Part shown: one piece after another, positions 48,022 to 52,067 of the stretch
Numbering within the stretch: position 1 is the stretch's first letter
How the letters are laid out: every line of letters begins with the position of its first letter
IMG/VR virus record: IMGVR_UViG_2529292913_000008
Direction: 5' to 3' (one strand)
DNA: 64,000 nt
From: a virus
Lineage: Duplodnaviria; Heunggongvirae; Uroviricota; Caudoviricetes
The notes under the pieces: model-generated
Seen by the model: only the letters and a program-made list of their open reading frames with translations
Database searches by the model: none
What the model was told of the DNA's origin: nothing
Translations under genes and position numbers: made by a program

Positions 48022-48603
48022 ATGGCACCTATACCTTATGGGGTTTACAGCCAGGCTGACGGTGTATCGCCATTTCTGAAAGTTACTTTAACGAACTCTC
48101 AGTACCAGGTTACCGGATATATCAGCCAGGGGGCAGCAATGAACATGGCCCAGAATTGGGAAGCGCCGTTTACCGGTATGTCCATGGGGTCTGTTGCTGG
48201 TGCTTTCAGTGGTTTTGCGCAGGTTGGTACTGAAACAACGTCGGTGGCCCGTTGGAACAGCTTAATGGTTTGGGAGGGGGGAACACCGCCGACTTTCACG
48301 CTGCCAGTAACTTTCATCGCTTTGTTTGACCCATTCACGGAGGTTTCAGGAGCTATCGCCGCATTGTCAGCGATGATTAGCCCGGAACTTAAAGATGCCA
48401 GCATTGGTGGTCGAATCCCGGAGCGTGTGACGCTAAACATTGGTCGCCGGATCAACATCATTGATGTCGCTATCCAGGACATAAGTTTCGATCTCGATGC
48501 GCCCAGGGACAGCAATGGGCATTTCCTGAAAAACACCGTCAACCTCCAGTTGACCGGTTCTTCGATATATAATAGCTCCGATATTGTTCGGGCGTTCCAG
48601 TAA
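48022..48603 (+). CDS. Hypothetical structural protein
   Basis: 193-aa ORF in the late-gene block. Confidence 0.5.
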   Translation: MAPIPYGVYSQADGVSPFLKVTLTNSQYQVTGYISQGAAMNMAQNWEAPFTGMSMGSVAGAFSGFAQVGTETTSVARWNSLMVWEGGTPPTFTLPVTFIALFDPFTEVSGAIAALSAMISPELKDASIGGRIPERVTLNIGRRINIIDVAIQDISFDLDAPRDSNGHFLKNTVNLQLTGSSIYNSSDIVRAFQ

Positions 48604-48614
48604 AAGGATTTTAT

Positions 48615-49124
48615 ATGGGGCACAATAACACTAAGGGAAACCGTAAATTTATTAAGGGCCGCTATACTGCCAACGCGGCCAAAGGCGAACGACTGGTATC
48701 TTCTGAATTCCAGCTCACTTTTGCAGGCCATGAAGATATCAGCGTACTGGTTCGCACGTCGCAAATTCCTGAAATGACCCGCGAGGATGTGGAGGACTAT
48801 GGTCCGAATGGTGTGAAGTTCAACCAGCACGGTCCAATCCGTAACTCCGGGGAAATCCAGGTCCAGTGCGTGGAGACTATCGAAGGCGATATTCTTCAGT
48901 TCATTAAAGATCGCATTGCGGCGAAGGACTATGTTGATATCACGATGGCTGCTACCCCTGAATCCAAATCTTCCGGGGTTAACGCTGTGACAAAAGCTGC
49001 TACAACAATTGAAATGTTGGACTGCAAAATCTACAGTGATGCAATCGACTTTAGTACCGAAGATGTGACTGCTGCTGTGCGCCCGTCACTTCGTATCGTC
49101 TACAACTGGATTGATTGGGATTAA
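48615..49124 (+). CDS. Hypothetical structural protein
   Basis: 169-aa ORF followed by a strong terminator. Confidence 0.5.
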   Translation: MGHNNTKGNRKFIKGRYTANAAKGERLVSSEFQLTFAGHEDISVLVRTSQIPEMTREDVEDYGPNGVKFNQHGPIRNSGEIQVQCVETIEGDILQFIKDRIAAKDYVDITMAATPESKSSGVNAVTKAATTIEMLDCKIYSDAIDFSTEDVTAAVRPSLRIVYNWIDWD

Positions 49125-49143
49125 GAGTCATCCCTTGTATTTT

Positions 49144-49170
49144 AAAGCTCCTTCGGGAGCTTTTTTATTT
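49144..49170 (+). terminator. Rho-independent terminator
   Basis: aaagctcc-ttcg-ggagcttt followed by ttttattt. Confidence 0.7.
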
Positions 49171-49228
49171 GGAGAGGAAAGGGTGCATTGAGGATACCTG
49201 ACACACGAAGAGTGGCGGGGATCTCTCC

Positions 49229-50567
49229 CATAAGCGCTAACTTAAGGGTTGAACCATCTGAAGAATGCGACGCCTCGGTGCCTCGTTAAGACGATGCCTC
49301 GCGTTCTTCAATTGCGTTTTGTAGGCTGTCAGGGATACTGTCCCACGAATGGCCACCTGTAAGCTCCAGATGACCATTTTTGTTATTCTCCACAACGAGT
49401 TAGTTCTTCTTTTCGGATCCGGCACTTCTGGGGGGGAAATCCAGCGATGGCTGGATTATGTCGTCAATTAAAAATGCGGCGAGTAGATTAGCAAATATCC
49501 ACGCTTTCGCGAGTTCAGGTTCCTTTGCACGCAAAGCATCCAGGTGCAGCAAACTTTTGAGCCGCTTAAAAGCCAGTTCAATTTGCCATCGCAGACGGTA
49601 ACAATCAGCCACTTGCTCTGCTGAATATTCATCTTCCGGTAATGATGTTAGCAATAGCACATGGCCCGCTGCTTCCAGCGTTTCCGCCTGAACTACTCGT
49701 CCTTTTCGACGATTCTCGCTGAGCAGTCGGGTTTTACTGATTAATGCTTTTTCGGGAGGAAGTGATACGGCAATGAGACGTGCCGGAAAGGGAGCTCCGG
49801 CTTTTTTATTACCTGAATTGCCTATCATTACAGTGGTTTCACCGTTCTTACCGCAATCCAGCCCGCGCAGAAAACCCATCATGTCAAAGCGCATTCCTTC
49901 TGCAGTTAACCAGCGCAATCCTCGCCAGTGAACCCGGACGATATAATCAGCTTCTCCAAAAGCAAGTGAGCGGATACATTCGGGACGCGAACCGAATCCC
50001 CGGTCAGCAATGCGTATCTCGTCTGCCGTTTGCGCAAATCGGTCCAGCCGTTCAGCGTCTCTGCTGTCGGTTAGCTCAAAATCAGTGAACTGACAGGTAT
50101 GAGGATCATATCCCATATGTAGTCGCCATTCAGCGCTGCCGCCCCCGGGCGCACTGATTGCTGTTCCATCGACAAGACGCAATCTCTTTCCGCTTGTACA
50201 ACCCGTAACTGCGGCGCGTACAGCAAGTGTTTGTGCGGCAAGTATGCCAAACCAGTCGGCGGCATTCCGCAGCCGCTTCAGGAGAGCCACGTCAGATAAT
50301 GTTGCAACGTCATGGAGCTGAGCCCATGCAGTGACTTCACGTAATGACATCCCCCCGGGGCCGTAAGCCAGCCCCAGACGTAGCAGAGTTGCAGCATCAC
50401 GAATTTCGCGGCGGCGGGTTAGAGCCCCGGCATTACGTGCCGAAGTATCCAGTTCTTCGGGCTTACCAATATGGGCCAGAATTGCTGACCAGTTATCGTG
50501 AGAGTAATTCATCGGCACGTTAAATCATATCAGGCGTAATACCACAACCCTTAAGTTAGCGCTTATG
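49229..50567 (-). mobile_element. IS186 (IS4 family), 1339 bp, with 10-bp target-site duplication GGATCTCTCC
   Basis: Terminal inverted repeats CATAAGCGCTAACTTAAGGGTTG at 49229 and its reverse complement ending at 50567; identical flanks at 49219-49228 and 50568-50577. Confidence 0.85.
49400..50518 (-). CDS. IS186 transposase
   Basis: 372 aa, recognised as the IS186 transposase (MPMNYSHDNWSAILAH...). Confidence 0.9.
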   Translation of the reverse strand: MPMNYSHDNWSAILAHIGKPEELDTSARNAGALTRRREIRDAATLLRLGLAYGPGGMSLREVTAWAQLHDVATLSDVALLKRLRNAADWFGILAAQTLAVRAAVTGCTSGKRLRLVDGTAISAPGGGSAEWRLHMGYDPHTCQFTDFELTDSRDAERLDRFAQTADEIRIADRGFGSRPECIRSLAFGEADYIVRVHWRGLRWLTAEGMRFDMMGFLRGLDCGKNGETTVMIGNSGNKKAGAPFPARLIAVSLPPEKALISKTRLLSENRRKGRVVQAETLEAAGHVLLLTSLPEDEYSAEQVADCYRLRWQIELAFKRLKSLLHLDALRAKEPELAKAWIFANLLAAFLIDDIIQPSLDFPPRSAGSEKKN

Positions 50568-50589
50568 GGATCTCTCCCCGCCAGGTCTC

Positions 50590-50745
50590 TTACCTTTCAG
50601 ATTCGTAGGCTGTGAAGACAGTGACCTCCGTCTGGCCGGTTCGGATTCGTACCTCGCAGAGGTCTTTCCTCGTTACCAGTGCCGTCACAATGACGGTTAA
50701 ACAGATGACGATCAGAGCGATTAATATCGCTTTATGCTGCTTCAT
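50590..50745 (-). CDS. Hok/Gef-family membrane toxin
   Basis: 51 aa, MKQHKAILIALIVICLTVIVTALVTRKDLCEVRIRTGQTEVTVFTAYESER, near-identical in pattern to E. coli HokC/Gef; below the ORF-track cutoff. Confidence 0.75.
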   Translation of the reverse strand: MKQHKAILIALIVICLTVIVTALVTRKDLCEVRIRTGQTEVTVFTAYESER

Positions 50746-50926
50746 AGCCTGCTTCTCCTTGACCTTTTGGTCGGTAAGAGGCTAATCTACGTATGCTAAG
50801 CATAGATATGGCCTCAGATTAATGTTAAGCGTCTTGCAGGACGCGTAATGTTATCTGGGGCTTTCTTCTATCTGCTTTTCGGGTAATGCCTGAAGCAGAT
50901 AGCCTCAAGCACCCGCAACGATTGTA

Positions 50927-51174
50927 TCAATGTCTGGCTTTTTTTCTATAGAAATCACCTGGAAGGGTGAATATCCACATCAGAAGAAATGTTGCAGCAA
51001 ACATGATCCCTAATGGCCAGACCGCGCCAAAGAAAATCCATACTAAGATCTCCTCTGCTTGTTCTTTGCGGTCGATATCGACAAGCATTTTTCGGCTGAT
51101 CATGTATACACAGAAGCCAATACAAACATATCCTGCAAAAGCGATCGCTAACTGTAAAAAATCAGATTGCATCT
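50927..51174 (-). CDS. Small membrane protein
   Basis: 82 aa from the internal ATG with a GAGG RBS; two hydrophobic segments. Confidence 0.4.
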
Positions 51175-51222
51175 CCGACCTCAAACCGAAAACGCCAGGT
51201 GACTCCAGATTAGAGCAATCTA

Positions 51223-52067
51223 TCACCCTCTGAATCCTGCCGGTATACCCCATTGTTCGTTATCTTTATTTTTGGCTAAAACCGCATTAAGAGCTTCGTT
51301 TACCGTCATGCAATGCGGCAGATTATCGAAGTTTGATATCCCGCCAATATCAGGAGAACGCTTGTCCTTCAGGTAAGCATATTTCCGCGCTGCCGCCTCT
51401 ACTTTCTGCTTGAACTCATGTTTTTGAGCGCGTTTTTTGGATAACCGCAGATTGTCAGCCTTTGCTTTTGCCTCAGCGATCCATGAAGTCAATTTTTTGA
51501 GTCTGGTCGTTCCGGCACCGCCGGAAACTGATCTTTTTGTTTTTTAACTTGTGACTTCTTATTCTTTATTGCCACGTCATCCTGACAGGGGGAGGGGGTA
51601 TCATTTTGACATGGGGGTGTGGATAAAAAATTAAATAAAGCCAATGTCTTAGCGAGAACAGCTTTAACCTTGGTTGCCGCTGAAGAGATCTTTAATTTGC
51701 TTTCAATCAGCGCATTTTTGGCTTGTTGTGCGAAGGCCAAAAAGGATGGTGTAAACCGGTACAGGTTAGCGCGACGTTCACGGTGATCGCCGATAACAAT
51801 CTCTACAGACAGGATTCCTTTGTTTACAGCTTCACGGAATGCACGAACGACGGTTGATTGGCTATAACCAGTTTCTGCCGCGATCAGGCGGTGAGGCTTG
51901 TGAATGAAGTATTCACTGGTTGTTGCCGCGAGATTTGCACATTGCGACAAGATATGCCCGGCGCTACGGGATAGACCGGAGTGTGTTACAAAGCAGGCCA
52001 ATTCATAGCCAGAAAAAGTAAAATCGCTCATCGTTATACAGCTCAGGAAAGTGACTTTAGCCAGCAT
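51223..52067 (-). pseudogene. repL: Lytic replication protein RepL gene split by a -1 frameshift at a T6/A6 run (51493-51498)
   Basis: The 192-aa and 89-aa ORFs abut; adding one A to the run fuses them into 281 codons, the length I recall for P1 RepL; kilA lies immediately upstream. Confidence 0.55.

Follow-up and report, generated by a model that had tools for sequence, protein, structure and literature searches.

IS186 in the terminal stem-loop of a hok/sok locus on a P1-like phage-plasmid: a recurrent insertion site and a probable loss of toxin activity

The Locus and the Question

What happens to a hok/sok addiction module when an insertion sequence (IS) lands directly behind its toxin gene? 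The question is raised by one locus in the virus record IMGVR_UViG_2529292913_000008, a stretch of 64,000 nucleotides (nt) which we call the window and in which a copy of IS186 follows the stop codon of a hok gene. By sequence similarity the window is a P1-like phage-plasmid. Its part from 48600 to 51300 has 99% identity to P1-like phages (phi456, "Punavirus P1" MH422554 and Ro157c2YLVW) and to IncY plasmids, and phages and plasmids of these kinds were also the best matches of the locus itself. The answer that we reach is that the insertion probably disarms the hok toxin.

The Insertion and Its Target

The hok toxin gene (50590–50745, minus strand) is an intact open reading frame (ORF) of 51 aa. 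Its product matches Pfam HOK_GEF (PF01848) with E=1.3e-21 and a score of 76 bits (cutoff, 22), so the homology to Hok that the original prediction had claimed for this ORF, from the DNA letters alone, is present. The stop codon occupies 50590–50592, and related records annotate the gene as hokD or Hok-Gef.

The inserted element is IS186 of the IS4 family (1,339 bp, 49229–50567, minus strand). Over 1,339 bp it shows 100% identity to IS186A of Escherichia coli K-12, and on related plasmids the same element carries the RefSeq label IS421-family transposase. Its ends are perfect inverted repeats of 23 bp: CATAAGCGCTAACTTAAGGGTTG lies at 49229–49251, on the 3′ side of the transposase gene and distal to hok, and the reverse complement of this 23-mer lies at 50545–50567, on the 5′ side and adjacent to hok. 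The transposase ORF (49400–50518, minus strand; Pfam DDE_Tnp_1, E=1.6e-26) codes for 372 aa from a GTG start at 50518 and for 370 aa from the annotated ATG start at 50512. The transposase gene and hok share a strand, and the transposase start is 78 nt downstream of the hok stop.

Direct reading of the sequence gives 22 nt between the hok stop and the end of IS186 at 50567, exactly the spacing first reported. The perfect 10-bp duplication in a G-run/C-run target also stands: GGATCTCTCC flanks IS186 on both sides, at 49219–49228 toward bplB and at 50568–50577 toward hok, and only one copy is found at the empty site of relatives. The duplication amounts to 12 bp when the terminal C and G of IS186 are counted. 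It arose inside the target GGGG-ATCTCT-CCCC. IS186 is reported to prefer targets of the GGGG-N6-CCCC type (saiSree et al. in 2001) and to leave GC-rich duplications of 10–12 bp.

When IS186 and one copy of the duplication are removed, the remaining sequence aligns without gaps over 1,352 bp, at 99% identity, to the empty-site phage MH422554, and the insertion pattern is therefore not a product of chance. An assembly artefact was ruled out by identical junctions in dozens of independent assemblies. In the window without the IS only two sequences fit the pattern of at least four G, three to seven nucleotides of any kind and at least four C, and one of them is the hok hairpin described below. The other, GGGGCATCCCCC at 12931–12942, is unoccupied.

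The Split Stem-Loop and the Displaced fbi Element

The restored hok sense strand reads UAA-GAGACCU-GGCGGGG-AGAGAU-CCCCGCC, followed by 20 nt, by CCUCAAUGCACCC and, farther on, by a terminator. IS186 has entered the 3′ untranslated region (UTR) of hok within the loop of a GC-rich hairpin, GGCGGGG-AGAGAU-CCCCGCC. The 5′ arm of this terminal stem-loop (GGCGGGG, 50576–50582, minus strand), which forms the hairpin in the reconstructed mRNA, is now parted from the 3′ arm (CCCCGCC, 49214–49220, minus strand), which lies beyond IS186 from hok. The stem-loop is unbroken in the empty-site relatives and is not contiguous in the window.

CCUCAAUGCACCC (49181–49193, minus strand) is the fold-back inhibition (fbi) element. 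It is complementary to the tac element, the 5′-terminal GGGUGCUUGAGG of the hok mRNA (50903–50914, minus strand), which starts at the first position of the Rfam leader model and is predicted to pair with fbi. In the window fbi is 1,349 nt further off than in the empty site. The original prediction named a disturbed 3′ fold-back element as the presumed effect of IS186 at the K-12 loci. For the window this holds as far as the displacement is concerned, as fbi lies wholly beyond IS186 and not upstream of the insertion point, and it is refined by the finding that IS186 also breaks up the stem-loop at the end of the processed hok mRNA. The complementarity of tac and fbi itself is kept (12 bp), but the contiguous mRNA of ~0.4 kb with pairing of tac and fbi between its two ends is absent from the window. 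The window cassette is a disrupted member of the hok/sok family. Beyond fbi, a hairpin terminator (49144–49163) is common to hok and the convergent bplB gene; it is strong toward bplB and has a weak U-tract toward hok.

In the predicted fold of the reconstructed 426-nt mRNA, nt 1–12 (tac) pair with nt 373–385 (fbi) at a probability of ~1, and the 3′ hairpin is formed. We compared nine hok loci: two P1-like, four from Rac-type prophages, hokC, hokE and flm of F, the last taken by accession for the covariation comparison. All nine have, 20–27 nt past the hairpin, the start of a segment that is complementary to the 5′ end, with predicted energies from −15 to −21.5 kcal/mol. The helix shows compensatory differences, with U4-A in the window against C-G in F, and U7-A in the window against C7-G in hokE. 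The homology of P1-type and Rac-type cassettes ends directly after fbi, which indicates that fbi is the 3′ edge of the functional unit. With the reconstructed hok mRNA as query, a "distant" blastn search of plasmids returned only relatives of at least 67% identity and no R1-type loci.

We also considered whether IS186 itself offers tac a new partner. A pairing with a segment ~290 nt inside the element was predicted at one transcript length only and was lost in longer RNA, and we rejected it as chance. Inside IS186 the best tac duplex reaches −16.6 kcal/mol; the duplex with the native fbi reaches −21.0.

Recurrence of the Insertion

Is the insertion a singular event? Site occupancy was counted in the PLSDB plasmid set. 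The P1-type hok site is empty in 217 plasmids, carries IS186 in the orientation of the window in 32, and carries it in the opposite orientation at the same junction in 176 (counted with a synthetic junction query, matches at 100% identity). IS186 is thus present at this site in at least 208 plasmids, in both orientations, which is about half of such loci. The empty site is present in phi456 and MH422554, and several hok haplotypes were found both occupied and empty. On the chromosomal side, a junction query detected IS186 in the window's orientation beside a hok gene in 937 of 5,426 complete E. coli genomes; in an evenly spaced sample of the rows this was mostly hokC.

The same hairpin position has been struck at hokC (with one and the same duplication for either orientation), at hokE, at the hok gene between cysH and cas3, and at the P1-type plasmid site. 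From these junctions the P1-type site is a recurrent IS186 hot spot and not the place of a singular event, and the insertion in the window would be one of many independent events there.

One plasmid differs further. In pCP53-92k (NZ_CP033095.1, 2321–4640) the same bplB-side junction with IS186 in the opposite orientation is followed by a tyrosine recombinase gene in place of hok, an arrangement that points to an IS186-associated deletion or rearrangement.

Comparison with Known Loci

IS186 beside hok, parting fbi from the gene, has been known at chromosomal loci since 1999; hokE::IS186B of K-12 was reportedly described by Pedersen and Gerdes in that year. The parallel with hokC and hokE had been drawn in the original prediction, and it proved correct on the K-12 genome, where IS186 lies 22 nt (hokC) and 21 nt (hokE) past the stop at the same hairpin position. 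The window, with its IS outside the hok ORF and between the stop and fbi, matches this type.

At hokE::IS186B the element occupies the loop of a hairpin behind the stop, GCGGGG-AGUAAU-CCCCGC, with a 10-bp duplication, the same orientation to hok as in the window, and fbi beyond the IS. Unlike the window locus it is chromosomal (ybdK-entD), codes for another Hok sequence, has the duplication GGAGTAATCC, and shows a shorter tac–fbi helix with a compensatory C-G. At hokC (gef)::IS186A the element is 100% identical to that of the window and fbi is displaced; the duplication is also 10 bp, GGAGTGATCC in the hok sense. Here the differences are the opposite IS orientation, the chromosomal location and a mok that is in frame with hok. 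In strain SCEC020023, hokC carries IS186 at the identical site and with the identical duplication but in the window's orientation, opposite to that of K-12. At this locus (NZ_CP025950.3, 1362–4344) IS150 is found directly upstream of mokC in addition to the downstream IS186.

The hok gene between cysH and cas3 of O104:H4 (NZ_CP064387.1, 661–2174) has IS186 21 nt past the stop; the element is oriented as in the window and flanked by a duplication of 10 bp, GGGTAAAACC. The hairpin there is GCGGGGG-UAAAA-CCCCGCG, of the form G5-N5-C4. This locus differs from the window locus in being chromosomal and adjoining CRISPR-Cas I-E; IS186 at this place is mentioned in PMC3903273 with regard to cas gene loss and not to hok function.

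The hok/sok locus (parB) of R1 and flm of F share with the window cassette the 5′ tac, the leader with the Sok target, the coupling of mok and hok, and a GC-rich stem-loop after the stop, with fbi ~25 nt past the stem-loop and then a terminator. In contrast to the window, their hairpin, GGCGGGC-GCAG-GCCCGCC, is uninterrupted and lacks the G4 and C4 runs and the 6-nt spacer. Their nucleotide similarity to the window cassette is too low for blastn. Outside the hok family, work of 2001 cited in PMC3861542 describes recurrent site-specific insertion of IS186 at lon, in a G-run/C-run target and in independent lineages. In that case, unlike the window, IS186 disrupts a promoter and not a 3′ structure of an mRNA.

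The Leader, sok and mok

The promoter-like site, tac, ucb, the Sok target, the sok gene, the mok start and the hok ORF are all unaltered by the insertion. The hok mRNA 5′ leader (50740–50914, minus strand) contains tac, ucb, the Sok target and the ribosome-binding sites of mok and hok. It is matched over its full length, from 50914 to 50740 on the minus strand, by the Rfam sok model RF01794 with 114.9 bits (gathering score, 59), and the mok ATG lies at 50803, so that the mok/sok-like leader proposed for the region upstream of the toxin is borne out. Other Rfam matches in the region (CRISPR-DR46, ceN48, sbrA and a plus-strand sok) were all below their gathering scores and were set aside as chance. 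The promoter-like site of hok (TAGAAA, a 16-nt spacer and TG-TACAAT; 50921–50948, minus strand), a candidate by consensus match only, ends 7 nt upstream of the first base of the leader (50914).

The putative Sok antisense RNA (50795–50872, plus strand, ends approximate) was placed from the positions of sokC and mokC in K-12 and from the Rfam match. Upstream of it lies a putative promoter on the same strand (TTGACC at 50759–50764 and TAATCT at 50783–50788), assigned by homology; a consensus promoter scan of the region did not detect it.

The mok leader ORF (50732–50803, minus strand) starts at the ATG at 50803 and reads across the hok AUG. It is cut to 23 codons by a private UAA (50734–50732), against 68 codons in close relatives. 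A private A-to-T change at 50734 on the sense strand, in hok codon 4 and mok codon 24, produces both this stop and the substitution Q4H in Hok. The change is found in none of 12 other P1-like hok loci, and HokC has His4 naturally. We rejected this nonsense change as a second inactivating lesion tied to the IS, since only the window has it and since a mok stop after the hok AUG is reported to be without effect on hok translation (PMC9841398).

Codon 47 of hok (50605–50607) is a Tyr codon UAC followed by G, a UACG context. The Tyr codon at the matching position of hokC, hokD and hokE is reported to be edited from A to I by TadA, giving Cys (PMC12214031), and by analogy such editing could also affect the window locus. 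Several P1-like plasmids lack the hok ORF and keep no more of its leader than the first 90–135 nt, where tac/sok lies; by sequence these copies look like remnants of the hok cassette.

Consequence for hok Function

What, then, would the insertion do to hok? The R1 system provides the reference. There, pairing of tac and fbi gives a stable, untranslatable full-length mRNA, which slow 3′ processing turns into the active form, the target of Sok, and the open form of the mRNA is bound by Sok and destroyed by RNase III (PMC9841398). A hairpin matching the split hairpin of the window stabilises the processed, translatable mRNA in R1, and disruptions of single base pairs in the terminal stem-loop abolish both the processed mRNA and toxicity (PMC9841398). 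Of 22 substitutions in the R1 3′ UTR that cost toxicity, 19 destroy a C-G pair in the terminal stem, and such mutants lack the processed mRNA (PMC9841398). In K-12 hokA, hokC and hokE are considered inactivated by insertion elements (PMC12214031), and according to PMC3562002 the IS186 at gef/hokC presumably disrupts fbi. In the literature a loss of killing activity of this kind is reported for chromosomal loci only (PMC12214031).

By analogy with R1, the following course of events can be proposed. IS186 inserted in the loop of the hok 3′ UTR stem-loop, duplicating 10 bp. The stem-loop that keeps 3′ exonucleases off the processed, translatable hok mRNA is thereby split, and fbi, the partner of the 5′ end in the long-lived inert mRNA, is moved 1,349 nt away. 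Transcripts of hok would run in sense into the transposase gene of IS186, and the stable reservoir needed for post-segregational killing would no longer be formed. We consider it likely that this hot-spot insertion has silenced the hok locus or greatly reduced its activity, with sok still being expressed. With sok and the 5′ half of hok intact, loss or strong weakening of post-segregational killing is the outcome that we favour. The original prediction had allowed for either a deregulated or an inactive locus; of the two, inactivation appears more likely than toxic deregulation because in R1 disruptions of the stem-loop abolish the processed mRNA and toxicity.

Several observations weigh against this conclusion. 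At equilibrium, the predicted fold of a 1,775-nt read-through transcript keeps the pairing of tac and fbi, and the hairpin arms pair across the IS. A terminator scan predicted no strong terminator inside IS186 in the window orientation and found one weak site on the minus strand. Seven IS-bearing plasmids were examined, and each has an intact hok ORF, with no decay seen. The IS-disrupted gef locus of K-12 is reported to be still transcribed and still under antisense RNA control (PMC3562002). From the predicted folds, some regulated function of the locus could survive.

Taken further, these points lead to the alternative that the insertion is functionally neutral: transcription would cross the transposase gene, which is translated, and reach the original fbi and terminator, and closure by tac and fbi would keep the addiction module working. 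The read-through RNA, whose minimum-energy fold re-forms the split hairpin, the single weak terminator-like site, and the intact hok ORF and leader in IS-bearing plasmids agree with this. Nevertheless we regard it as unlikely. A ribosome-loaded mRNA of 1.8 kb is unlikely to live as long as a compact, end-paired RNA of 0.4 kb, and with a "loop" that now measures 1.3 kb, processing to the hairpin-protected active form would be impossible. Moreover, the K-12 loci with the same lesion are held inactive in the literature (PMC12214031).

A different question is why so many sites are filled. In its widest form the proposal would be that IS186 uses the terminal stem-loop of the hok mRNA as a landing pad throughout the family, having struck it independently in four or more paralogous loci, in both orientations and in about half of the P1-type copies, and that this occupancy is maintained by selection rather than by target preference alone. 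This seems quite unlikely to us. If true, selection would act on the landing pad, for example because the insertion disarms a costly or phage-interfering addiction module, or because it feeds hok-promoter transcripts into the transposase gene.

For the P1-type site in particular, the claim would be that the high occupancy reflects selection and not target preference alone, in that a disarmed hok helps the phage-plasmid or its host, or in that the hok promoter supplies IS186 with transcription. The near equality of empty (217) and occupied (208) sites, the striking of at least four hok paralogues and the same-strand position of the transposase start, 78 nt behind the hok stop in the window orientation, are consistent with such selection. 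Against it, plasmids carry the convergent (opposite) orientation more often than that of the window, 176 versus 32, which argues against a benefit from promoter capture. The hairpin also fits the known IS186 target, of which the window holds one other instance, so mutational bias is sufficient. We hold selection at this site to be very unlikely.

That the insertion deregulates hok toward more toxicity, an mRNA without fbi being translatable as soon as it is made, agrees with the absence of the end-paired closed form from the predicted fold without fbi, but is hardly credible, because in that fold the 5′ end would enter a local hairpin (nt 1–12 with nt 20–34) that resembles the metastable structure of R1, because the Sok gene is intact and the open form in R1 is bound by Sok and destroyed by RNase III (PMC9841398), because a broken 3′ stem in R1 leads to loss and not gain of toxicity (PMC9841398), and because an arrangement borne by more than 200 sequenced plasmids and ~900 chromosomes, thus by hundreds of replicons, is a poor fit to a toxic allele.

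Neighbouring Genes

The hok/IS186 region is flanked on one side by bplB (48615–49124, plus strand), a tail-tube/baseplate gene, and on the opposite side by repL and kilA. The toxin gene had been placed between late genes and repL at the outset, and it does lie between bplB and repL. This interval is variable among P1-like phage-plasmids: in canonical P1 it holds rlfA-rlfB-pmgF, and in the lineage of the window the hok/sok cassette and an ORF of 108 aa. The latter (50927–51253, minus strand), between hok/sok and repL, has no Pfam match. In some RefSeq records it is called "membrane domain protein", or a shorter hypothetical protein of 81 aa is annotated in its place.

In the window repL is broken into ORFs of 192 aa (51489–52067) and 89 aa (51223–51492) on the minus strand. 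The break is a 1-bp deletion in an A-run, from A7 to A6, at ~51546, relative to the RepL frame of 281 aa in MH422554. Either the lytic replication gene carries a true frameshift, or the homopolymer was misread in sequencing.

Meaning of the Finding

Our literature search found no paper on the P1-type hok site or on its ~50% occupancy by IS186. Plasmid records already annotate "hokD" beside "IS421-family transposase". The window locus is a further example of an IS186-interrupted hok, already known on chromosomes, and involves no new mechanism.

The practical meaning concerns surveys of toxin-antitoxin content and predictions of plasmid stability for these carriers of antibiotic-resistance genes. 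Where "hokD" stands beside "IS421-family transposase" in a P1-like phage-plasmid, the pair should be left out of counts of functional addiction or defence modules until it has been tried. At the same time, the P1-like phage-plasmids offer a natural allelic series on near-identical backbones, with the site empty, with the IS in one orientation and with the IS in the other, which may be used to study the function of the hok 3′ stem-loop and of fbi, and the strictness of IS186 targeting.

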